From the NCBI GenBank assembly GCA_041483895.1, contig JBGPGO010000029.1:1-28695 (forward strand): a DNA stretch of 28,695 bases, given 5' to 3'. Shown one piece after another: positions 3,188 to 15,811 of this stretch (position 1 is its first letter; every line of letters starts with the position of its first letter). The position numbers and the translations under genes were made by a program. A model generated the notes under the pieces. The model saw nothing but the letters and a program-made list of their open reading frames with translations, was not told the origin of the DNA and ran no database searches. This stretch comes from Fimbriimonadia bacterium. GTDB lineage: Bacteria > Armatimonadota > Fimbriimonadia > Fimbriimonadales > JABRVX01.

Positions 3188-3430
3188 ATGGCAGGTGTGG
3201 AGGATGTTGCGGTCGTCAAAATGGTTCGCCGAGAACTCAATCGGCGCAAAATCGATTGCGCGCTGGTAGATGTCCGCGTGTCGCATGGGGTGGTTTTCCT
3301 CCGCGGCGTGGCAAAGCCGATGCGGGGCGGCGCCACAGATGTGAAAGGCGAGATTGAAATTGTGTGTAGAGTTCTGCGCCAGAAAGCGGAGATTAGAGAC
3401 GTGATCGCGGAGCTCATCTACCGAACTTAG
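3188..3430 (+). CDS. Small protein, possibly a single BON-like domain
   Basis: AAGGAG RBS right after panB. The pattern D-x-x-V...VDVRVSHGVVFLRGV...IRDV resembles BON domains. Confidence 0.6.
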   Translation: MAGVEDVAVVKMVRRELNRRKIDCALVDVRVSHGVVFLRGVAKPMRGGATDVKGEIEIVCRVLRQKAEIRDVIAELIYRT

Positions 3431-5694
3431 AAGTCCACGCCGGTGCTGGTATCCAGCGGCTGGCCCGACGGTCCGATCCCAAAGTCCGAACGGTAGGGAA
3501 GAGCCTTGATCCGAATTGCGAAGTTGAATTCCTTGCCATTTCGGAAACCAAACGCCGTCTCGCTATAGCTCAATACAGCTTCCACGCAGTGGAGGTCGTA
3601 CGTCAGATTCAACTGGCGGGATTCAAACTTCCGAAGATATCCATTGTAGAGCGCCATCGCCGAGACCTTGGTCCGCCCCCATGTGAAGCCGTCTACCCGA
3701 AGATTCAGGTTGCCCCAGATGTGCTGCAGCGCGTCGTACCGCGCCTCCATCCCAACCTTGGTTGCCCCCGCTTTCCAGTCAATGCGGAATCGTGATGTTG
3801 ACCACGCCTTGGCAACCGGATCGTAAACCGTTGAAGCCACCGTCTTGAAATAGGGAGCAGGTTCCCATTTCATCGCCGCCCCAACCGTATTCCAAGCGAT
3901 GTCGCCCCGCTTTTCGCGAAGCAGGTCGTACCCGCCGCCCACTCTCAGCGTCAGCTTTTCCCCTACGGGCGACTCCATGAGCAGCGTCACCAAGTTCGTC
4001 TGACCCCTTCGGTCGAGTGAGAGCGGTGTAAATCCGTAGGGCCGCAAATAATCGTAGCGCAACAAAAGTGATTGAGACGTCTTCTTGTCGCTGAAGCCGT
4101 AGCGACTTTCCACGCTCTCTTGCAAAACGTATTGCGCCGTATCGTCGCTGTACATCGATTGATAAAACTCCGAGCTGTAGCCGAACGACAGGCCGCGTTT
4201 CGACTTCGAGCTCTCGGACGAACGCGCCCCAAACCCGTATCGATTGACCTCCTGATCGGTAAAATTGTCCAGGTACTGTCCGACGCTCGTTTCTAAGTTG
4301 ATCCGGGGAAGACTCTGGAGTCCCAACAGCCGGCGGCTATCCGATCGCAAAGTCAAAACCGGCGTCCGATTGGATCCCGAGATAAAATTTGTCGTCTCGC
4401 CGATCGGAACCAATCGCTGATACGACAGGTCCCCATCATATCGTTTGGAAGCATATGACAAGCCAAGCCCCAGGTCAACCTGCTCGCGCTCGGACAGTGT
4501 TTGGCTGCCTTGCGCCGTTGTGGAGTTGGAATAGGTCATGCGATTATTTAACGAGAATCCGTTGCCGAGGGGGCGGGAATCCGATAGGCCGAAGGACTGA
4601 TTCGTGTTGCTGTAGGTGCCGGATTCATTGCGCGAGTCTATGAAGTTCAGTTGTGTGCTGCCTCTTCCCGCGCGGTAAAGGGCAGATGTGTTCGTGACCA
4701 TCGAGCGGCTGTCAGGAAACGTAAGATAGATGTTTTGGTGGAAGTCGGATCGGAATCGAACGCTCAAATTGCCGAATGTTTGATTGTGAAATAAGTCTCC
4801 CGTAAAGCTGTTCTGTCCCCGCTGATTGTCATATAGGTTATAGAACTGCAGGTCGCCCTGAGAGCCTTTGCCGCCCCATTTCTGATCCAATCCCAACCCG
4901 AGACCCAGCTTTTCCATGAAGTCGGTCCGGAGAATCGCCGCATCTCCGCGAAGAATTCCCGCGGTGAATTTCGACTTCACGTATGTGCCTTCGAGTTCCG
5001 ACCGGCCGACGTCCGGCAGATATCCGTTGTATTCCGGTCGATTCAGTGGAACCGTCAAATGCGGCAAAGCGACCAATGTCTTTCCTAGCGCGCGCAGACG
5101 GAAATTGCGAAAAATGATCCGGTCCCCAGGCTTCACATCGAACTCTGCGGCTTCCATTTCAAAGTGCGGGTGCCCGAGCGGGCAGGTCGTCACTTCGCCG
5201 TCGAAGAGCGTTTGCTCCCGATTTGTGCCTTCCGAGCTGGCTCCCCGCGCGTACAGATCGGAGAGCAGTCGGCCATCGAACAGCTTCGGCATGAGGTCTG
5301 ATCTGCCATTTTCAAATCGGTATTTCTTCTCCTTGAAGTCCACCCAGACCTGATCGCCCGTAGTGACCTGATCGGAACCGCGAACGATGACATCTCCCGA
5401 CAACATGAACTGCTCCAAGTCCACGTCGCCCGATATCTCCTTGGCCTTGACGTTGTAGCCGCGAAACTGGAACTCCACGCCGCCAACCGCATGGATGTTC
5501 GAACCTTCTTTTGTGAGGTTGCCGAACGATTTCCAGTGGACGATGCGATCGTCCGGCAGATTCGGATCGGGAGCGCCGATGGAGTATTTAGGCGGCTTGG
5601 GAGGCTCAAATCCGCCGGGAGCCAGCGGATTCTTCTGTTGTGCCTGCGCCACCGTAATCAGAAAGCAAATACAGCAGATAGCCTTCCATCTCAT
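3427..5694 (-). CDS. LPS-assembly protein LptD-like outer-membrane beta-barrel
   Basis: Signal peptide, OstA-like N-terminal region, TTC...PHF motif, long amphipathic beta-strand region with YDLHC near the end, terminal F. ATGA-coupled to the LptF/G gene. Confidence 0.75.
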   Translation of the reverse strand: MRWKAICCICFLITVAQAQQKNPLAPGGFEPPKPPKYSIGAPDPNLPDDRIVHWKSFGNLTKEGSNIHAVGGVEFQFRGYNVKAKEISGDVDLEQFMLSGDVIVRGSDQVTTGDQVWVDFKEKKYRFENGRSDLMPKLFDGRLLSDLYARGASSEGTNREQTLFDGEVTTCPLGHPHFEMEAAEFDVKPGDRIIFRNFRLRALGKTLVALPHLTVPLNRPEYNGYLPDVGRSELEGTYVKSKFTAGILRGDAAILRTDFMEKLGLGLGLDQKWGGKGSQGDLQFYNLYDNQRGQNSFTGDLFHNQTFGNLSVRFRSDFHQNIYLTFPDSRSMVTNTSALYRAGRGSTQLNFIDSRNESGTYSNTNQSFGLSDSRPLGNGFSLNNRMTYSNSTTAQGSQTLSEREQVDLGLGLSYASKRYDGDLSYQRLVPIGETTNFISGSNRTPVLTLRSDSRRLLGLQSLPRINLETSVGQYLDNFTDQEVNRYGFGARSSESSKSKRGLSFGYSSEFYQSMYSDDTAQYVLQESVESRYGFSDKKTSQSLLLRYDYLRPYGFTPLSLDRRGQTNLVTLLMESPVGEKLTLRVGGGYDLLREKRGDIAWNTVGAAMKWEPAPYFKTVASTVYDPVAKAWSTSRFRIDWKAGATKVGMEARYDALQHIWGNLNLRVDGFTWGRTKVSAMALYNGYLRKFESRQLNLTYDLHCVEAVLSYSETAFGFRNGKEFNFAIRIKALPYRSDFGIGPSGQPLDTSTGVDF

Positions 5695-6764
5695 TCGATC
5701 CGCCGCGCGGCAACCAGCGCCGCGATAAGGAAGATGATGTTCGGCCCCCAGGCCGCGACCAACGGCGAAACGATCCCTTGCTCGCCCAACACTTTGGTAA
5801 AAAGCAGCAACCCATTGATATGCGCGAACACCAAGAAGACGGACAGCAGGATTCCCGTGAATCCGCCGCTGCGCGAAAACGCAAGGCTGAAGACGGGACC
5901 GAAAATGGCGAAGATGACGCAGGCGAAGGGGATGCTCAGCTTCGTATGGTACTGGACCTCTTTTTCCAGCGACGGCCGGCCGATGGCCCTCGACCGCTCA
6001 ATATCCTCGCGCAATTCCGCGCGCGTCATTTCGTCCGGCAGCAACGGGCTTACGATATCTTGAAGCGGCACTCGCTTGTCGATCCGTCCAGTCTCGCCCT
6101 CTAGGTACTCCATATCCTTCCCTTGACGAAAATGCCAGACCTTGGCGTTCGTCAATCGCCAAACGCCGTTATCGTACCGAGCCTTCTCCGCCCGAAATAT
6201 CTTGGTCTCCTTTAGACCGACGGTGCGGATCGCCGTCATGTCAGTAACATCGTAAACATTGTCCGAAACCTTCTCCACCAAGCCGAGAATGAACTTCCAA
6301 TCCTCCACAGTGACGACTTCGTTGGCGGTAAACCGAGGCGTGCTCTGCATCATCGCTACCTGAAACAGCAGCTTCTTGAACCGATTCCCCGACTGCGGAA
6401 CGACATTTTCTTGAAACCAGTAGGTAGCTCCAAACGCCGCAAAACCGAGAAGCATGTAGGGGATCAATATCCGCCAAACGCTGACCCCGGCCATCCGCAT
6501 CACCAGTATCTCTTGATCCCGCGCCATCCGCGTGACCGCCATCGCAGTGCCGACCGCAATCGCGACCGGCGCGGCAATCACGACGAGAAATGGCAATCGG
6601 TAAAGCACGAGCTGTCCGACCGCTGCCAATGTCACCCCGCGATCGAAGAGCACCCGGCCGTTCTCATAGAGAAGTCCCCCAGTCAGCAGCATGATCGCGG
6701 ACACGGCGCCGATCAGAAACGGCACAAACGTCTCTTTTAATAGGTACCGGTCCATGAGCTTCAT
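5691..6764 (-). CDS. LptF/LptG (YjgP/YjgQ) family LPS export permease
   Basis: MKLMDRYLLKE start, RMARDQEILVMRMAGVS, KLSIPFAC, AAWGPNIIF. Start set at ATG 6764, overlapping the upstream stop (ATGA). Confidence 0.9.
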   Translation of the reverse strand: MKLMDRYLLKETFVPFLIGAVSAIMLLTGGLLYENGRVLFDRGVTLAAVGQLVLYRLPFLVVIAAPVAIAVGTAMAVTRMARDQEILVMRMAGVSVWRILIPYMLLGFAAFGATYWFQENVVPQSGNRFKKLLFQVAMMQSTPRFTANEVVTVEDWKFILGLVEKVSDNVYDVTDMTAIRTVGLKETKIFRAEKARYDNGVWRLTNAKVWHFRQGKDMEYLEGETGRIDKRVPLQDIVSPLLPDEMTRAELREDIERSRAIGRPSLEKEVQYHTKLSIPFACVIFAIFGPVFSLAFSRSGGFTGILLSVFLVFAHINGLLLFTKVLGEQGIVSPLVAAWGPNIIFLIAALVAARRIE

Positions 6765-7534
6765 TTGGTTACAGTCCGCCAAAAGAGGTATACGCCCGCG
6801 GCAACCGTCAACAAGATAAGCGGTACGGCTACCAGTGAATGAACGCTAGACCCAATGTAGGGCGCGAGAACAAGGACGCAAACAACGATAAGCCAGAGTC
6901 GGACGAGCCGGCCCGCCGCCCGTTCCGGCAGCCAGGCGCCCCCCGCCAATGAGGCAAGGATATCGCGGCCGCATCGTTTGCATCGGACTTCGGTCGGGTG
7001 GTTCTTGAAGCCGCAGTCGGGGCAAGTGTTGGGATTGTCGTCCGGCGTGCCCTTCAGATCGCGGCTGACCCACTGCAGCATGCGCTTTTCGTCGAGCATG
7101 TGATGGGGAGCCGCGGCAACAGCGCGTTCCAGCAGGCCGACGGCGGAGGCCGTCAAGCCATACTTCACGCACAGTCGGCCCAATTCTCCGAGTGCACTAG
7201 GGTTGTTGGCGCTGCCGCCTAGAATTCCGGAAAGCTTTCGCATCCGCTCGATATCGATGGCCAACAGTGCTTTGCCGTGGAGAAATCGGCCCACAATCGG
7301 GACCGTAAGGGCCGACAGCCATAAGATCGATGCGCAGCTCACCCGCATCCAAAGATGCTCGTTGGTATGCCCAATCAGGGCCACACCGATGGCCGCCCCA
7401 ATGCCGAGCGCAGCCTCGGGGCCGCCGAGGTCGGCCATGATGGCCTGCTTCGTAAGGTGCATGATCCAGTAGAAGGCCGGTGGCCAGATGAAGAACCACG
7501 CGAACCCTATTTGAAGCAGCCAGCCAAGATCCAT
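6761..7534 (-). CDS. Membrane protein with a TPR-like helix pair and a CxxC-x10-CxxC zinc ribbon
   Basis: About three N-terminal and two C-terminal hydrophobic helices; NPSALGELGRLCVKYGLTASAVGLLERAVAAAP (TPR-like); CPDCGFKNHPTEVRCKRC. Confidence 0.75.
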   Translation of the reverse strand: MDLGWLLQIGFAWFFIWPPAFYWIMHLTKQAIMADLGGPEAALGIGAAIGVALIGHTNEHLWMRVSCASILWLSALTVPIVGRFLHGKALLAIDIERMRKLSGILGGSANNPSALGELGRLCVKYGLTASAVGLLERAVAAAPHHMLDEKRMLQWVSRDLKGTPDDNPNTCPDCGFKNHPTEVRCKRCGRDILASLAGGAWLPERAAGRLVRLWLIVVCVLVLAPYIGSSVHSLVAVPLILLTVAAGVYLFWRTVTK

Positions 7535-7706
7535 GCTGACGCTATTTTGGCACCATTATCTGCGAACCTTGAGAAGCAGTTTATTTGTGAAAAAAGTAGC
7601 AATCTTTTCTTGCCAATTTGAGGCGACTTTCCATGCAAATCTCCTCAAACGAGCCGCCCGCACCCCGAAACAGCCGATATTTAAGCTAACGATGCATTAA
7701 TATTCA

Positions 7707-7715
7707 TGGTATTAT
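7707..7715 (+). promoter_or_regulatory. Putative extended -10 promoter of nadA
   Basis: TGgTATTAT in an AT-rich intergenic region about 90 nt upstream of nadA; no clear -35. Confidence 0.45.
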
Positions 7716-7734
7716 AGATGTAGCAACCTCTAAA

Positions 7735-7790
7735 TCCTTGGAAACGGGCAACAACTCCGTTCGAAATTTCACGAACTGCTCGCCAAGGAG
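7735..7790 (+). ncRNA. NAD+-I (nadA motif) riboswitch-like aptamer, single compact domain
   Basis: UCCUUGG-AAA-CGGGCA-[ACAACUCC bulge]-GUUCG-loop-CGAAC-UGCUCG-CCAAGGA. The P1/bulge/P1a arrangement matches my recollection of the nadA-motif core (CA-ACAACCCC-GU...AC-UG), and it sits directly upstream of nadA. Confidence 0.65.
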
Positions 7791-7804
7791 ACCGGTGGTC
7801 AATT

Positions 7805-8923
7805 ATGTATCAACCGCCTCTCGATGCCGCCTACTCACAGGCGACCGAAGAAGAACTGCATACAAGAATTCGTGCCGCCAAGCGCGCCTTGGGGAGTCGA
7901 ATCGTAATCCTTGGGCATCACTATCAGCGAGACGATATCATTCAATATGCCGATTATCGCGGCGACAGCTACAAGCTTTGCAAGGATGCCCAACGTCATC
8001 CCGAAGCGGATGCGATTGTATTCTGTGGCGTCCACTTCATGGCGGAGAGCGCCGATATCCTGAGCGCGGACCGCCAGACGGTCATCCTCCCGAACCTGTC
8101 CGCCGGGTGCAGCATGGCCGACATGGCCAACATTCACCAGGTGGAACGGGTCTGGGAAGAATTGGGCCAGGTCACGGATGTCTCGCGGATCATCCCGATC
8201 ACCTATATGAACTCCGCCGCGGACCTCAAAGCGTTTGTCGGCGCCCATCAAGGAGCCGTTTGCACCAGCTCCAACGCGCGAAAGGTGATCGAGTGGGCGC
8301 TCGACCGCGGGGATAAGCTGCTCTTCTTCCCCGACCAGCATTTGGGCCGGAACACGGCCTGCCGGATGGGATTCGACGTCGAGAGAGATATGCTGGTCTG
8401 GGATCCCAAGCAGACCCTAGGCGGCAATTCGCCGGCCAAAATCCAAGATTCCACCGTCTTACTTTGGAAAGGACACTGCTCGGTGCACGGCCGCTTCACG
8501 CTCGAGCAGGTCACTCTGTCCCGCAAAGTGCATCCTAACATTCACGTCGTGGTCCACCCGGAATGCACCAAGGATGTCGTGGATGCGGCGGATTCCTTCG
8601 GCTCTACCGAGTTCATCATTCGGGCCGTGGAAGCCGGCGAACCCGGTAGCAAATGGGCAATTGGGACGGAGATCAACCTTGTCCACCGCCTCGCCGCGGA
8701 GAACCCGGACAAGTTCATCATGTGCCTAGACCCGATCACCTGTCCCTGCAGCACGATGTATCGAATCCACCCGAGTTTTCTCTGCTATGTGCTGGAAAAG
8801 CTGGTTCAGGGCACAACGGTCAATCGAATCGATGTGCCGGACGACATCAAACGCCATGCCATCACCGCGTTGGAGCGGATGATCGCAATCACTGAGCAGC
8901 TGCAGAGCGCACTAGCCGTCTAA
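7805..8923 (+). CDS. nadA: Quinolinate synthase
   Basis: ILGHHYQ, GDSY, FCGVHFMAE, AGCSMA, TYMNS, CTSSNA, FFPDQHLGRN, CSVH, HPEC, GSTEFI, CSTM motifs. Confidence 0.97.
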   Translation: MYQPPLDAAYSQATEEELHTRIRAAKRALGSRIVILGHHYQRDDIIQYADYRGDSYKLCKDAQRHPEADAIVFCGVHFMAESADILSADRQTVILPNLSAGCSMADMANIHQVERVWEELGQVTDVSRIIPITYMNSAADLKAFVGAHQGAVCTSSNARKVIEWALDRGDKLLFFPDQHLGRNTACRMGFDVERDMLVWDPKQTLGGNSPAKIQDSTVLLWKGHCSVHGRFTLEQVTLSRKVHPNIHVVVHPECTKDVVDAADSFGSTEFIIRAVEAGEPGSKWAIGTEINLVHRLAAENPDKFIMCLDPITCPCSTMYRIHPSFLCYVLEKLVQGTTVNRIDVPDDIKRHAITALERMIAITEQLQSALAV

Positions 8924-8964: not shown

Positions 8965-8994
8965 TTCGCCCATCCCGCAAGCGGGATGGGCGAA
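8965..8994. terminator. Likely bidirectional terminator hairpin
   Basis: Perfect inverted repeat TTCGCCCATCCCGC/GCGGGATGGGCGAA between convergent nadA and PEP-CTERM gene 1. Confidence 0.75.
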
Positions 8995-9034: not shown

Positions 9035-9745
9035 TTACTTGCGGCGTCGCAATGCGGCGATACCGGCAAGACCGGTTACGATCGCGACAATGCTACCTGG
9101 CTCAGGAACAACGCGGACCCTATTGTCAGTGATGTCCTTTGTTTTGCCCGCCTGATCCAGGATGCTGGTGTTCACACCTGTGGGTGAGACAACGCCATCC
9201 TTTGTCCAGTCCAGTATGTTGCCAACGCTGCCGGGGGCCACGGTGAACTGGTAAAGCATGACATCCCAGTCATGGGCTCTTGTCTTGTTGCCGTTCATGC
9301 CGAACAAGACATACATGCCGTTGTTGCAGACTATCGGCTGGCCGGAGGTGCCGTCAGTCGGGTCGATCGAGTTGTCGTACATCACACTAGCGTCACTGAT
9401 GCTGTCAAAGAGGATAGTCGTCAGGATGTCACCTGCCGGACCACCACTCGCCTTTGCCGCAGTAAGCTGCGGTTTCCAACTGACCTCATCTGCTGCGCTA
9501 ACCAACGACAGTCCGTCGAGACACAGAGTGACCCGGAGGGTACCCCACTTAAAAGGGTTAACGGTGTCAGAGGCGTGGAAGTGATACCAGATCTGGATAT
9601 TATCGCCGACACTGGCATCGACTGTTCCTGCTGCTTGGTTATTGGTGGTCGTGTTCCAGAAGTGCAGCCGGCTAGTATAAGCCGCATAGCTGCTCCCGGC
9701 AAGCGCGGTCGCCAATCCAAGGACCATGAGATTTCGGATTACCAT
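9035..9745 (-). CDS. PEP-CTERM surface protein, paralog 1 (cohesin-like beta domain)
   Basis: Signal peptide MVIRNLMVLGLATALAGSSYA; C-terminal VPEPGS + TM helix + RRRK. Start moved to ATG 9745, downstream of AAGGAG. Confidence 0.88.
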   Translation of the reverse strand: MVIRNLMVLGLATALAGSSYAAYTSRLHFWNTTTNNQAAGTVDASVGDNIQIWYHFHASDTVNPFKWGTLRVTLCLDGLSLVSAADEVSWKPQLTAAKASGGPAGDILTTILFDSISDASVMYDNSIDPTDGTSGQPIVCNNGMYVLFGMNGNKTRAHDWDVMLYQFTVAPGSVGNILDWTKDGVVSPTGVNTSILDQAGKTKDITDNRVRVVPEPGSIVAIVTGLAGIAALRRRK

Positions 9746-9903
9746 ACGTAGGAGACTCCTTTTTCTTAGCAACTTAGACCAGCTAAGTGGAGGCTGTGCC
9801 TACAAACAGCGTGAAGTTTAGAAGGCCTTTCCGACTTCACGTAAAGCAGAATTTGATCTATTTGGAGTGGAGTTCCCAAGTCCGCTTCTCAGCGGACATC
9901 CCT

Positions 9904-9931
9904 ATTATATTCGGAAAACCGCAAATGTCAA
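9904..9931 (-). promoter_or_regulatory. Sigma70-type promoter of paralog 1
   Basis: Minus strand TTGACA-16 nt-TATAAT. Confidence 0.8.
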
Positions 9932-9997
9932 GCAAAATGCACAAAGTTTTTCGAACTTTTTCCGATCACTACACTCAAGGGGCCGCCTTCCGCCACG

Positions 9998-10031
9998 AAA
10001 TAAGAAGCCCGCTCCAGAGATTGAAGCGGGC
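9998..10031 (-). terminator. Putative terminator after paralog 2
   Basis: GCCCGCT/AGCGGGC stem followed on the minus strand by TTCTTATTT. Confidence 0.55.
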
Positions 10032-10062
10032 AACTGAGTACAAAGAAAACTTCAACTGCAGT

Positions 10063-10752
10063 TCATTTGCGGCGGCGAACGGCTATCAAACCGATCACTC
10101 CGGTGCATAATGCGAGGATACCGGTCGGCTCCGGAACCACTTTAACATGGTTGTTGGTGAGGTCCACAGTCGCGTTCTTTTGGTCGAGAATGCGAGTGGA
10201 CAGTCCGGTACTCGTATTTCTCGCATCAAGCGCCCAATCCAGGGTCTGCCCGATGGAACCGGCCTGTACGGTGAACTTCCAAAGTTTGACATCCCAGTTC
10301 TGGGAGCGAGCCTTGGTTCCGTTGATCCCAAGGAAGACATAAAGGCCGTCGTCACACATTTTTGCCTTCGTATCGTCCGTCGGATCGAGGGAGTTGTCGT
10401 ACAGGATTCCGCTTCCCGTCACCGTCGTCAAAAAGTCGCCGGCAGGGCCGCCGGTTACTTTCGCGGCGGTGATCGAAGCATCCCAGGTTCCCTTGTCGGC
10501 CGCCCCGACGAGGGTCAGGCCGTCAAAGCACAAGGTCACCTGAAGGGTTCCCCACTTGAACGGATTGACCGCGTCAAGGTCATCAAAGTGGTACCAGATC
10601 TCGATTACGTCGCCCACATTAGCACTGACTTGACCAGCGTTCGATGTGCCTTGCGTTGCATTCTTGAAGAACAAACTAGCTGCATAGGCCGCAAAACTGC
10701 TGGTTGAGAGCGCAGCTGCGAGGGCTAAAACAAAAGCAATCCGAATCTTCAT
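10063..10752 (-). CDS. PEP-CTERM surface protein, paralog 2
   Basis: Signal peptide MKIRIAFVLALAAALSTSSFA; VPEPTG + TM + RRRK. AAGGAG RBS before ATG 10752; the ORF-track extension to 10986 crosses the promoter. Confidence 0.9.
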   Translation of the reverse strand: MKIRIAFVLALAAALSTSSFAAYAASLFFKNATQGTSNAGQVSANVGDVIEIWYHFDDLDAVNPFKWGTLQVTLCFDGLTLVGAADKGTWDASITAAKVTGGPAGDFLTTVTGSGILYDNSLDPTDDTKAKMCDDGLYVFLGINGTKARSQNWDVKLWKFTVQAGSIGQTLDWALDARNTSTGLSTRILDQKNATVDLTNNHVKVVPEPTGILALCTGVIGLIAVRRRK

Positions 10753-10910
10753 CACGGATACTCCTTTAACAATCAATTTAGTCCTACAGCTGAGGCATTG
10801 CCAAAGAACAAATCTGGATGAAGAATCGGAGAAGGCCAGCCCATACCCATCCAGCAAATAATACAATTTCCCACGTTGGAGTGGAATCCGCGCCGGATCG
10901 GTTCCGGCAG

Positions 10911-11270
10911 CTACACTGACATAATACCAGGAGATCGGGGTTTTGTCAAGGACAAAATCGCGAAAAGAATGGAACACGTGACCCATTGAATCCGGGGCTG
11001 CCCACGTCGCCGGCGCGCCGCATAGGATCCAAGGCCGAGCAGGGCCGCAACGAAGCCTCCTGGCTCCGGGACAACCGTCACCCAGTTGTCCGTGACATCC
11101 ACGCTATTGCCTTTCTCGTCCAAGATTCGGGTGGATAGGCCTGTGCCTGTTTGCCGCCCATCGAGCGCCCAATCGAGTGTCTGACCCCCGCTTCCCGGTT
11201 GAACAGTGAACCGCCATAACATGACGTCCCAGTCTTGCGCCCTCGATTTGGTACCGTTGATGCCGAGCAA
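10911..11270 (-). pseudogene. 5'-truncated PEP-CTERM paralog (C-terminal third only)
   Basis: LGINGTKSRAQDWDVMLWRFTVQPGS...VPEPGG-TM-RRRR aligns with the neighbours' C-termini. No signal peptide or RBS; it starts at the terminator of paralog 3, and the frame reads on past the basic tail. Confidence 0.8.
10921..10949 (-). promoter_or_regulatory. Sigma70-type promoter of paralog 2
   Basis: Minus strand TTGACA-17 nt-TATTAT. Confidence 0.8.
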
Positions 11271-11273
11271 CGC

Positions 11274-11311
11274 AAAAAGCCGTCCGCCCTGGCGCTGCCA
11301 GAGCGGACGGC
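11274..11311 (-). terminator. Intrinsic terminator of paralog 3
   Basis: Minus strand GCCGTCCGCTCTGGC-AGC-GCCAGGGCGGACGGC-TTTTT. Confidence 0.85.
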
Positions 11312-11327
11312 GGAACGTTGCCGAATT

Positions 11328-12017
11328 TTACTTGCGGCGGCGAATGCCGGCAATGCCGGCGAGACCCGAAAGAACCGCGGCGATGGTGCCCGGCTCCGGA
11401 ACCACTGTGACATGGTTGTCGGTGATGTCCTTGGACACGTTCTTTTGGTCGAGAATGCGAGTGGACAGTCCGGTGCTCGTCGTTCTCCCATCAACCGCCC
11501 AATCCAGGGTCTGCCCGACGGAACCGGCCTGAACGGTGAACTGCCAAAGCTTGACATCCCAGTTCTGGGAGCGAGGCTTGGTTCCGTTGATCCCGAGGAA
11601 GACATAAAGGCCATCGTCACAAATTTTGGCCTTCGTATTGTCCCCCGGATCGATAGAGTTGTCGTACAGGGTTCCACTTCCGGTTACCGTGGTCAAGAAG
11701 TCGGCGGCAGAGCCACCGCTTACTTTCGCGGCGGTGATCGAAGCATCCCAGGTTCCCTTGTCGGCAGCCCCGACGAGGGTCAGGCCGTCAAAGCACAAGG
11801 TCACCTGAAGGGTTCCCCACTTGAATGGATTGACTGCGTCGAGGTCATCAAAGTGGTACCAGATCTCGACTACGTCGCCCACATTTGCATTGAGCTGGCC
11901 GGCGTTTGATGTGTTTTGCGTTGCGTTCTTGAAGAACAGGTGTGCTTGGTACGCTGCGAAGCTGCTGCTTGTGAGCGCAGCCGCCAGCGCCGTCACGATA
12001 AAATTGCGAATCTTCAT
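11328..12017 (-). CDS. PEP-CTERM surface protein, paralog 3
   Basis: Signal peptide MKIRNFIVTALAAALTSSSFA; VPEPGT + TM + RRRK; very similar to paralog 2. Confidence 0.9.
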   Translation of the reverse strand: MKIRNFIVTALAAALTSSSFAAYQAHLFFKNATQNTSNAGQLNANVGDVVEIWYHFDDLDAVNPFKWGTLQVTLCFDGLTLVGAADKGTWDASITAAKVSGGSAADFLTTVTGSGTLYDNSIDPGDNTKAKICDDGLYVFLGINGTKPRSQNWDVKLWQFTVQAGSVGQTLDWAVDGRTTSTGLSTRILDQKNVSKDITDNHVTVVPEPGTIAAVLSGLAGIAGIRRRK

Positions 12018-13268: not shown

Positions 13269-14381
13269 CTACCGTTTGAAAAGCAACAGCAGCGTGATTA
13301 GTAGGGACCCGTACCGCAAAAACTCTTGGGTCGACATGGGCCGAGAAGGATAGGGCACATTGATCGTGTCGCCCGGCTGAATCTCCGGGTCCGAAGCCTG
13401 GCCGCGCACGACAGCGTTGAGGTCCGCTTTTGTCGTGACCGTCTTCCCGTCCTCGATGCGTTTGATCTCGACCTTGTCGGTCTTTGCGCCATCGCTCGGT
13501 TCTCCGGCGCCGTGAATGGCTTGCGAAAGCGTCATCTTGTCCCGGTATGGGACCAACCCCGGATTTCTCACCGCGCCCCGAACCATCACATACGATGATC
13601 CGGCAACCATCGGTACGAATACCTGGTCGCCCTTCGCCAACTTAATGTTGCCGCCCAAAGTTGCGAAGTCAACAACTACCTGCTCGCCGGCCCGATGCTT
13701 GATCTGAATCTTTGAAATGTCGCCGTCGCTCTTTTGTCCGCCCGCAGCAAGCAGCGCCTCTGCCAGAGTCATCCCCTCTTTGAATTCAATCACGCCCGGT
13801 TTGGCCACAGCGCCCAGCACCGTGATGTCTCCTGCTACCGGTTGAATCGTCAGGTAGATCGTGGACCCAGCAGCAATTTTGGGGTTGCCGGCCGCGGCGC
13901 CGCGGCTCTTGAAGGAGAGATAGTCAATGCTGTTCACCGTGCCGTCGGACAGCGTTACTCGAACCGATGCCAGGTCGGCGGTCTCCGTCGGCTCCGCTTT
14001 CTTAAGGAGTTCGTCGAGGGTTGTGTTGTCATCAACCTGATAATCGCCCGGCTTTAGCACCGCGCCGGAAACGCTTGCCTTGCTCGGCGGTTTCTCCGCG
14101 CCGGCAAAGGAGACGGTCACTTGAGGTTCGAGCACGACCCGCTGGTCGCCCAGAATCTTCTGAATCTTCGCTGCGGCGGCGGCCAACGTCAGCCCCTTGA
14201 CCTCGACTATCCCAATGAACGGCATGATGATCGTGCCGTCCGGACCAACGTCGTAGTCCTTCGTCAGGTCCTTGCTGTTGGATACGGTAATGGACAGCTT
14301 GTTCCCTGGGGCGATTGTCTGTTGAGCGGCGGCCAATGACAGGCACACGAATATGGCGACGAAGACAAGAACTGATCTCAT
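13269..14381 (-). CDS. Polysaccharide export (Wza/Poly_export) protein with SLBB repeats
   Basis: IAPGNKLSITV...VGPDGTIIMPFIGIVEVKGLTL; three V.GAV.KPG-type SLBB repeats; signal peptide from ATG 14381 after GGAGG; C-terminal hydrophobic helix. Confidence 0.88.
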   Translation of the reverse strand: MRSVLVFVAIFVCLSLAAAQQTIAPGNKLSITVSNSKDLTKDYDVGPDGTIIMPFIGIVEVKGLTLAAAAAKIQKILGDQRVVLEPQVTVSFAGAEKPPSKASVSGAVLKPGDYQVDDNTTLDELLKKAEPTETADLASVRVTLSDGTVNSIDYLSFKSRGAAAGNPKIAAGSTIYLTIQPVAGDITVLGAVAKPGVIEFKEGMTLAEALLAAGGQKSDGDISKIQIKHRAGEQVVVDFATLGGNIKLAKGDQVFVPMVAGSSYVMVRGAVRNPGLVPYRDKMTLSQAIHGAGEPSDGAKTDKVEIKRIEDGKTVTTKADLNAVVRGQASDPEIQPGDTINVPYPSRPMSTQEFLRYGSLLITLLLLFKR

Positions 14382-14476
14382 TCCGAACCCTCCTAGTCCA
14401 CTAGATACGCGATCGGCGCCCACATCCCTGCAACGATTGCCGGCTGTAACTTTGGACGGGTTGCGTGGCACAAGTG

Positions 14477-15811
14477 TCACTTGCCGATGCAAAAGTCTGA
14501 AAAAATCCGCTCGACGATGTCGGCAGTTGCGGTTTCGCCGGTCACCAATCCGAGCGCGTCGAGCGCCCCCCGCAGGTCGATACACAGAAAGTCGGTGGGA
14601 ACATCGACGGAGAGGGTCTCGTTCCCATGGGCGATCGCGCCTCGCGCCTCGAGCAGCGCATGCTGATGACGTTCTCGGCTGACCAGCGCCGATTCGACAG
14701 GCACGTCCCCTAGCAGACGCCGCCGCAATTCGTGCCGAAGCTGATCCAGCCCGGTTCGCTGCGTTGCGGAAACTTCAACCATGCCCGGGAATCGCTGCCG
14801 AACCGCTGACATGGTTTCCTCACCGGCGATGTCCGCCTTATTCAGCACCACCAGCGGCATGCGGTCGAGCAATTCATCGTTGGAAGGAGTTTCCCAATCA
14901 TCCGGGCTGAGCAGCAGCATCACGAGGTCCGCCGACGAAACGGCTTCGCGCGTCCGCCGAACACCGATCTCCTCCACCACGTCGCTCGTCTCCCGCAGAC
15001 CGGCGGTATCAACGAGCGTCACCGGCACTCCCTCCAGATTGATCTGGTCTTCAATCGTGTCCCGCGTCGTGCCCGGTACGGACGTCACAATCGCCCGCTC
15101 CGTCCCCACCAGCGCGTTCAGCAGGCTGGATTTGCCCACGTTTGGCAGGCCGACGATGGCAACCACCGCCCCTTCCCGCACCAACCGGCCCTGCGCAAAC
15201 CCGGCGAGCAGTTCGTCAACTGTCTTCAGCGCCTGATCCAAGTTCGCTCGGGCCGCGACGGTGTCCAGCTCGCCGACCTCTTCGCTGAAATCTACCGCGG
15301 CCTCCGCCGCCGCGAGGACCGACATCAAACGGTCTCGCACCTCCCCCACGCATCGGCTCAGCTCCCCCTCGATCTGCCGCAATGCCAGTCGCCGCTGCGC
15401 CTCCGCTCCCGCGACGATCAGATCGCAGACCGCCTCCGCCTGTGCCAGGTCCAACTTGCCGTTCAGAAATGCGCGCTTGGTGAACTCCCCCGGTTCCGCG
15501 GGCCGCGCCCCCTGCGCAAGGCACAGCCGAACGACCGCTGCAAGGGTCAGGCTTCCGCCATGACAACAGAATTCTATGACGTCCTCGCCGGTGTACGAGT
15601 TGGGCGCGCAGTAGGGAAGGACCACAACGTCATCGACCGGAGCTCCCGCCTCGTCAACGATCTGGCCATGCCTCATCCGATGACTTTCCAGGTCGCCGCG
15701 AAATAATTGTGATGCTATGGGAAACGCATCCGGCCCGGAAAGCCGCACGATCCCGATTCCGCCATTGCCGGGCGGAGTGGCGATCGCGACGATCGTATCG
15801 GAGGCGATCAA
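14477..15811 (-). CDS. mnmE: tRNA modification GTPase
   Basis: DTIVAIATPPG, SYTGEDVIE, GEFTKRAFLNGK, GLPNVGKSS, GTTRD, DTAG, NKAD, terminal FCIGK. Start probably TTG 15811, overlapping the araD stop. Confidence 0.95.
   Translation of the reverse strand: MIASDTIVAIATPPGNGGIGIVRLSGPDAFPIASQLFRGDLESHRMRHGQIVDEAGAPVDDVVVLPYCAPNSYTGEDVIEFCCHGGSLTLAAVVRLCLAQGARPAEPGEFTKRAFLNGKLDLAQAEAVCDLIVAGAEAQRRLALRQIEGELSRCVGEVRDRLMSVLAAAEAAVDFSEEVGELDTVAARANLDQALKTVDELLAGFAQGRLVREGAVVAIVGLPNVGKSSLLNALVGTERAIVTSVPGTTRDTIEDQINLEGVPVTLVDTAGLRETSDVVEEIGVRRTREAVSSADLVMLLLSPDDWETPSNDELLDRMPLVVLNKADIAGEETMSAVRQRFPGMVEVSATQRTGLDQLRHELRRRLLGDVPVESALVSRERHQHALLEARGAIAHGNETLSVDVPTDFLCIDLRGALDALGLVTGETATADIVERIFSDFCIGK

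Follow-up and report, generated by a model that had tools for sequence, protein, structure and literature searches.

The closest described relatives of the RNA element reported here are the NAD+-I riboswitches (the nadA motif, Rfam RF03013). The class is said always to use two aptamers (PMC9481103), no single-domain examples are known (PMC10702441), and neither domain was found alone, single stem-bulges coming only from cut metagenome contigs (PMC6859854). In crystals, the ligand and Mg2+ are contacted by C6–G47, A7, A8, C9, A10, C14, C15 and G16, and C13 and C14 pair with a loop of domain 1 (PMC7297122, PMC7708056). The 7-bp P1a, RGYG internal loop and P1b of domain 1 brace the bulge and give an affinity of 20–300 micromolar (PMC7297122). 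Domain 2 has been crystallised with NAD+ (PMC7708056), and a Kd of 3.4 mM for ADP is quoted in PMC10702441; in isolation, neither in-line probing, with 10 constructs (PMC6859854), nor ITC (PMC10702441) gave a sign that it binds. The pocket of the class cannot distinguish NAD+ from ATP (PMC10702441). The puzzle is that domain 1 recognises no more of NAD+ than its ADP half and so admits ATP as well, and that binding by domain 2, the one with the ribosome site, is weak or absent. Because of this weak or absent binding, the role of domain 2 is disputed, the candidates being a second sensor, an NMN reader and a scaffold.

Three further systems bear comparison with the single-domain nadA elements (hereafter singles) described below. 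The ubiB motif of Nocardia, too, is related to the nadA aptamer, occurs outside Acidobacteria and has its Shine–Dalgarno (SD) sequence in a hairpin apart; unlike the singles, it is described as a variant of domain 1 in which key positions differ, and it precedes ubiB (PMC6859854). Singlet glycine riboswitches provide a precedent for single-aptamer forms of a tandem class, in an unrelated fold, but usually retain a 'ghost' aptamer (PMC9481103), whereas no remnant of a second domain was found for the nadA singles. The NAD+-II (pnuC) riboswitch likewise regulates NAD supply genes, but has a different fold and binds the nicotinamide side; it gave no Rfam match in the window, in positions 7600–7860 or in 20 singles scanned. 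In the open literature we found no description of a single-domain NAD+-I form and no riboswitch papers on Armatimonad nadA or Fimbriimonas; the 240 original nadA representatives of PMC5737381 may include Armatimonadetes.

The nadA leader of the window

The window, the whole 28,695-nt stretch from a Fimbriimonadia bacterium (Armatimonadota) that was analysed, carries the following features in and around the nadA leader.

7707–7715, plus strand: predicted extended -10 promoter box, TG-n-TATTAT, aligned with TGGTAGAAT of two genomes of the same family, with shared upstream bases
7725–7730, plus strand: AACCUC, a copy of the CC(A/U/G)C leader motif, 4–6 nt before P1
7735–7741, plus strand: outer stem, 5′ arm, the anti-SD UCCUUGG, in both the MFE and the centroid fold
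7742–7744, plus strand: AAA bulge of 3 nt, absent from the initial annotation
7745–7750, plus strand: P1 5′ arm; C7749 is C6 and A7750 is A7 in the published numbering (PMC7297122, PMC7708056)
7751–7758, plus strand: J1, the 8-nt one-sided bulge, ACAACUCC; the consensus is ACANCCCC, with C13 changed to U here
7759–7763 and 7772–7776, plus strand: P1a hairpin, GUUCG/CGAAC with an 8-nt loop, without an RGYG internal loop
7777–7782, plus strand: P1 3′ arm; U7777 is U46 and G7778 is G47
7783–7789, plus strand: outer stem, 3′ arm, covering AAGGA of the first SD
7785–7790, plus strand: first SD-like sequence, AAGGAG, 14 nt before the ATG at 7805, paired in the MFE fold
7794–7798, plus strand: second SD-like sequence, GGUGG, 6 nt before the ATG; anti-SD duplex of -5.8 kcal/mol
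7805–8923, plus strand: nadA, quinolinate synthase, 372 aa; TIGR00550, 322 bits against a cut-off of 263
8965–8994, no strand assigned (listed on the minus strand): perfect 13-bp hairpin separating nadA from the convergent gene that follows

Both stems, the bulge, the outer stem, AAGGAG and GGUGG had been described in the initial annotation and were recovered base for base at the same positions; its naming of the downstream gene as nadA is borne out by the TIGR00550 score. The 55 nt from 7735 to 7789 take the described fold at -20.2 kcal/mol (z = -4.13), a value reached by none of 200 shuffles; for the longer segment 7725–7830, z is -2.42 and 5 of 200 shuffles are as good. A descriptor made of the bulge and both stems has a single match in the 3.95-Mb genome, which is the element itself. 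All ligand-contacting bases of the published structures are retained (C6–G47, A7–U46, A8, C9, A10, C14, C15 and G16, at 7749–7759 and 7777–7778). The C-to-U change in the bulge falls on C13, whose pairing partner the singles do not have. Contigs from three of four public sequencing runs, one of which is possibly the source sample, span the element with zero differences, and the fourth stops at 7759; since the covering runs give identical letters, the change is not an assembly slip. By its anatomy the element resembles the NAD+-I aptamer and, judged with the relatives described below, it is a real and conserved RNA.

The aligned -10 box predicts a transcription start near 7722, and thus not downstream of 7745, where the P1 5′ arm begins. 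The box was listed neither by a consensus promoter scanner nor by the -10 pattern used in the census below. With this start the element would lie at the very front of the nadA transcript. The hairpin at 8965–8994 is probably a two-way terminator, which makes a transcript of nadA by itself likely. Among 80 loci listed, the named NadA nearest to that of the window, with 76% identity, comes from a metagenome-assembled genome labelled Fimbriimonadales (L070); a locus labelled Chthonomonadaceae (L009) has a NadA 62% identical to that of the window. Both carry the element, and their labels point to Armatimonadota as the most likely phylum of the host.

Several other features of the window were recorded. 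Three adjacent genes for PEP-CTERM proteins occupy 9035–12017 on the minus strand, and near them lies a polysaccharide-export gene (13269–14585) with a ComEA-like stretch. Divergent from nadA, two minus-strand ORFs of 257 aa (6761–7534) and 755 aa (3427–5694), both without an NCBIfam match, flank a gene for an LptF/LptG-like permease.

Relation to the NAD+-I domains

Rfam scans of the whole window and of 7600–7860 gave no nadA match at E values up to 10, and RF03013 run over the genome of the window, with 150 of 507 candidates scored, gave three matches below the cut-off, all elsewhere. The same model matched 16 of 20 singles from relatives at 17.9–35.2 bits, all under the 37.5-bit gathering cut-off, so that the singles escape annotation. 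The assignment of the element to the nadA motif made in the initial annotation, as a homologue, is upheld. As a control, nine of 101 genomes of an acidobacterial class exceeded the cut-off, every one with two tandem matches. A pattern scan of metagenomes yielded at least 119 stretches, among them 43 nadA-linked loci: 38 complete tandems, one cut tandem and four singles, the last with NadA proteins 63–65% identical to that of the window. Of the other 76 stretches listed, four resemble acidobacterial domain 2 and come from loci that are short or cut; the remainder are for the most part inside ORFs and lack P1 pairing.

Two properties place the singles beside domain 2 rather than domain 1. Of 47 copies of domain 1, 41 have the RGYG loop, compared with 4 of 47 copies of domain 2 and 2 of 79 singles, and the window has none; and 60 of 79 singles have a P1a profile nearer to that of domain 2, among them the window (+11.4 log-likelihood). 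The search pattern itself accounts in part for the invariance of CCCC in the sets of domains 1 and 2, which was not used as evidence. From the missing loop and the P1a profile, the element is a stand-alone domain-2-like unit and not a cut-down domain 1. The reading of the initial annotation as a stripped-down single aptamer therefore holds for 'single', and not for the implied trimming of domain 1; the lack of an extra junction, which it took as a sign of reduction, is the normal state of domain 2 (PMC6859854, PMC7297122).

The likeness to NAD+-I domain 2 extends to the order P1, 8-nt ACANCCCC bulge and P1a, to C6–G47, A7–U46 and G16–C45, to a P1a that begins GUYC without an RGYG loop, and to a position immediately before the ribosome site of nadA. 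The differences are that the singles have no upstream domain 1, belong to another phylum and score under the Rfam cut-off; that their P1 is longer, free in sequence and stronger (-14.3 versus -9.3 kcal/mol), whereas domain 2 has a fixed GCUUU/AAGGC helix; and that their SD lies mostly outside P1. With domain 1 the singles share the pocket and bulge and the place as first element of the transcript, but not the 7-bp P1a, the RGYG internal loop or P1b. A form with one core in place of a tandem pair, without the parts of domain 1 and outside Acidobacteria is, by these comparisons, a new variant of the NAD+-I class.

We also note that five nadA leaders of Acidimicrobiia type (L024, L029, L034, L054 and L056) have a related 8-nt bulge, ACAUACCC or ACAACCCC after a C–G step, in a different scaffold.

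Distribution and conservation in Armatimonadota

A census covered 169 genomes of the phylum with one nadA upstream region each, made up of 29 loci and 140 of 144 listed stretches. The sample favors genomes with a window-like NadA, plus 10 of the 18 genomes of family f4 that have another NadA type (f1, f2 and so on are codes for families within the phylum); about 240 further matches fall outside it, and one unpublished genome, G036, was left out, so that no claim depends on it. The element is present in 85 of the 169 leaders, in exactly one copy each and in two copies in none. This agrees with the initial annotation on two counts, a single rather than tandem arrangement and an occurrence outside Acidobacteria. 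By family, it was found in 3/3 leaders of f1, 16/42 of f2, 1/1 of f3, 8/10 of f4, 14/16 of f5, 23/24 of f11, 10/10 of f18 and 10/14 of f30, and in none from f8 (0/23), f10 (0/6), f32 (0/5), f29 (0/3), f6 (0/2) and ten singly sampled families. A similar finder applied to the reverse strands gave no matches.

A second core was not found 40–140 nt upstream of any of the 85 copies, 83 of which have at least 140 nt of upstream sequence, nor was a remnant of a second domain found. A -10-like box occurs within 55 nt of the C6 pocket in 42 of 85 copies, compared with 6 of 247 control windows; these 42 all come from the 52 copies outside f11 and f30, which account for 0 of 33. The box is frequently 1–14 nt from P1. 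Since at least 62 nt separate the two cores of tandem riboswitches, there is often too little space for a domain 1.

A genome-wide search of 151 genomes of the phylum with a second model was lossy, as only 36 candidates were scored per genome and the window copy itself was missed; its 20 best matches (29 bits or more) all precede nadA, and the 10 examined of the 13 weaker matches all lie inside ORFs. The same search, with the same 36 candidates per genome, gave no singles in 151 genomes of Chloroflexota or 151 of Acidobacteriota. Loose patterns run over the genome of the window and 401 genomes of the phylum were swamped by chance matches and are uninformative, and one look-alike (G000:C6) was dismissed as lying inside an ORF.

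The NadA of f4 is of another subtype (NF006878, above cut-off) and only 32% identical to that of the window, yet the element stands before its gene too, in 8 of 10 leaders, which argues that it follows function and not one gene lineage. The subtype at L442–L447 of this family has a long N-terminal extension and most members keep the leader RNA; two f4 members of one genus are without it. A FastTree phylogeny of NadA, midpoint-rooted and silent on the order of events, intermixes f2 singles with element-free f2 leaders (26 of 42) and sets the acidobacterial tandems on a separate branch. On this distribution, the element was lost in several lineages. Several f2 leaders without the element (L095, L107, L084 and others) have a -10-like box about 10 nt before the nadA start codon, and their sequence suggests that f2 nadA mRNAs are leaderless where the element was lost.

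Conservation of bulge and stems with covariation, on which the initial annotation had staked its reading, is evident in the related leaders. The covariance-model alignment of 59 distinct copies is fitted to the structure and includes kin that are not independent, so its figures lean high: 91.2% of cells are paired versus 66.3% in shuffles, 11 of 13 pairs are changed on both sides, and the covariation score is 0.557, where shuffles reach 0.153 and slid controls no more than 0.110. When 17 copies were aligned with MAFFT, unfitted to the structure, double-sided changes were seen in 9 of 13 pairs, and a second alignment set of 69 copies gives the same picture. Among the 59 copies, P1a is 99% paired with double-sided changes in three of its four pairs, C6–G47 is kept in all 59, A7–U46 in 58 (the one change is to G–C), and G16–C45 is invariant. 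Pocket bases are invariant among the singles and the flanking pairs are variable. The bulge is ACAUCCCC in 74 of 85 singles, ACAACCCC in three, ACAUCUCC in three, ACAACUCC in the window alone, and carries other single changes in four; the consensus ACANCCCC is matched exactly by 78 of 85, and exactly or nearly by 79, and C13 varies in five. Read from these alignments, the structure is under selection.

The CC(A/U/G)C leader motif is present in 10/10 copies of f18, 18/20 of f11, 9/10 of f30, 4/7 of f4, 2/16 of f2 and 2/12 of f5, compared with 45 of 309 background windows, and is also kept 4–6 nt before P1 in f1 and f3 (examples are L167, L188, L241 and L155). No pairing partner was found for it. 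Pairing of the leader CCNC with the SD was set aside (within-family p = 0.11), as was a general hairpin between the leader and the P1 5′ arm, which has support in f18 alone (permutation p about 0.01, close kin) and not in five other families.

Ribosome-site position, switching and alternatives

The first SD of the window lies inside a 3′ arm by way of the outer stem, and two relatives in the family have a different 5′ arm matched to their own SD. The initial annotation proposed that the outer stem buries the SD; this stands for the window and these two relatives, and not as a rule. Across 78 copies, the SD overlaps P1 in 13, lies 1–15 nt past it in 46, and is 18–58 nt away behind a second hairpin in 19; near SDs are thus directly against or inside P1 in 59 of 78. 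Because burial is seen in only 13 copies, it cannot be what the family as a whole conserves as its mechanism. In f2 and some f5 leaders, the aptamer and SD are separated by a sequence-variable second hairpin or three-way junction (L097, L099, L104, L127, L132, L149, L085 and L089–L091); these leaders have no U-tract and hence no evident terminator.

In the window, the duplex of AAGGAG with the anti-SD is worth -8.0 kcal/mol and freeing the SD costs 7.9 kcal/mol; GGUGG is predicted to pair with the leader or early coding sequence. During transcription, a weak 5′ hairpin is predicted to hold the anti-SD arm until the SD emerges. The aptamer fold beats its best alternative by 6.5 kcal/mol without ligand, and that alternative retains the SD stem; the SD-open fold leaves the pocket intact, so that both predicted states contain it. 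For these reasons, folding by itself gives no evident link between ligand and SD in the window. Of 78 copies, 37 have an alternative fold within 3 kcal/mol, 18 of the 20 in f11 among them; in 35 the bulge region is then paired to the G-rich 5′ arm. This alternative eases opening of the ribosome footprint in 3/3 copies of f1, 10/12 of f5 and 15/20 of f11, and gives no easier access in f2, f4, f18 and f30; overall, access is easier in 37 and harder in 30 of the 78. The complementarity of 5′ arm and bulge (-4.7 kcal/mol, versus -0.7 for the complemented arm) is barely above that of a shuffled arm (-3.7, exceeded in 45 of 79) and is therefore largely an effect of G-richness. Two further ideas were abandoned. 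Pairing of the C-stack of the bulge with the SD has too variable a geometry. Docking of the transcript's own 5′ ATP or NAD cap in the pocket, an idea prompted by the tolerance of the pocket for a 3′ phosphate (PMC7297122), was rejected as a general mechanism because many f2 and f5 copies have their -10 box 1–7 nt from P1 and no free leader.

The reading we prefer, with a probability of roughly one half, is a translational OFF switch of low affinity, formed by a stand-alone domain-2-like NAD+-I aptamer where the nadA mRNA is predicted to begin. NAD+ through its ADP part (or else ADP or ATP) would dock, together with Mg2+, on C6–G47 and the ACA-N-CYCC bulge as in the crystals. Without the bracing loop of domain 1, a response would come only at millimolar ligand, which is the cellular range of NAD+. 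The ligand would favor the full P1 helix over folds that pair the G-rich 5′ arm with the bulge, and the completed helix would cover (window, f1) or abut (most families) the ribosome site and lower nadA translation. High levels of NAD+, or of a related adenine nucleotide, would thus be likely to damp nadA translation. For this switch we count the conserved fold, the conserved pocket bases, the single copy and the exclusive link to nadA, as well as the near balance in the window between the cost of freeing the SD and the gain of pairing it, the alternative folds that ease ribosome access in f1, f5 and f11, and the ADP binding and NAD+ crystals of domain 2. Against it stand the location of the SD mostly outside P1, the lack of eased access in f2, f4, f18 and f30, the stability of the window aptamer without ligand, a P1 stronger than that of domain 2, the negative binding tests on isolated domain 2, a pocket that does not separate NAD+ from ATP, and, in the window, the off-consensus bulge at C13 and the missing RF03013 match.

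Some of these observations could be read in other ways. The presence of invariant pocket bases in singles that lack the brace of domain 1, together with the strict link to nadA, could mean that the pocket serves a different and tighter effector, another ADP compound of NAD metabolism such as NaAD or ADP-ribose, or NAD+ with a co-ligand; both PMC6859854 and PMC7708056 allow for an undiscovered ligand or co-ligand of domain 2. We rank this highest among the alternatives and still consider it unlikely, as the pocket is that of domain 1, whose crystals contact the ADP part only (PMC7297122), and the single domain has no extra conserved bases to read a nicotinyl ring, the only candidate being the CCNC leader motif of some families. 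Somewhat less probable is that the RNA is no switch by itself and that the bulge binds a protein, alone or bridging a nucleotide, that represses nadA translation or sets mRNA decay. A P1 that is stable without ligand would suit such a site, a bound protein would tolerate the widely varying SD position better than strand exchange would, and a protein co-factor for domain 2 has been raised (PMC9481103); the invariant bases, however, coincide exactly with the contacts to ADP and Mg2+ in crystals that contain no protein, and the acidobacterial form is functional in E. coli (PMC6859854).

The output, rather than the ligand, might be different: a sensing aptamer could act on the stability of the mRNA 5′ end or on Rho-type termination instead of occluding the ribosome site. 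The location of the element at the extreme predicted 5′ end, with a -10 box near in 42 of 85 copies, and the distant SD of 19 copies fit such an output, but the SD directly against or inside P1 in 59 of 78 does not, and we hold it to be quite unlikely. Moreover, a stabilised 5′ hairpin usually lengthens the life of an mRNA, which is the wrong sign for feedback. There is, finally, a slight chance that the family is functional and the window copy is a decaying, unresponsive relic, given that it alone has ACAACUCC, that it has no RF03013 match and that the element was lost elsewhere (the element-free f2 leaders intermixed on the NadA tree). Every ligand-contacting base and all stems are nevertheless intact in the window, and C13 pairs solely with the domain-1 loop that singles lack (PMC7297122) and varies in other singles as well.

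If the preferred reading of a low-affinity OFF switch is correct, the element would be among the smallest cofactor-sensing RNAs. Dozens of natural domain-2-like singles keep every pocket base, which shows that selection acts on this unit even where domain 1 is absent. It is tempting, although we lean against it for now, to go further and regard domain 2 as a complete, autonomous sensor, a bulged hairpin of about 40 nt that responds phylum-wide to millimolar NAD+ or another nucleotide of the NAD pathway, with the acidobacterial tandem a later elaboration. The natural single-domain form makes the question of what domain 2 does directly testable, and the singles are short, naturally optimised constructs with which its ligand and mechanism may be found.
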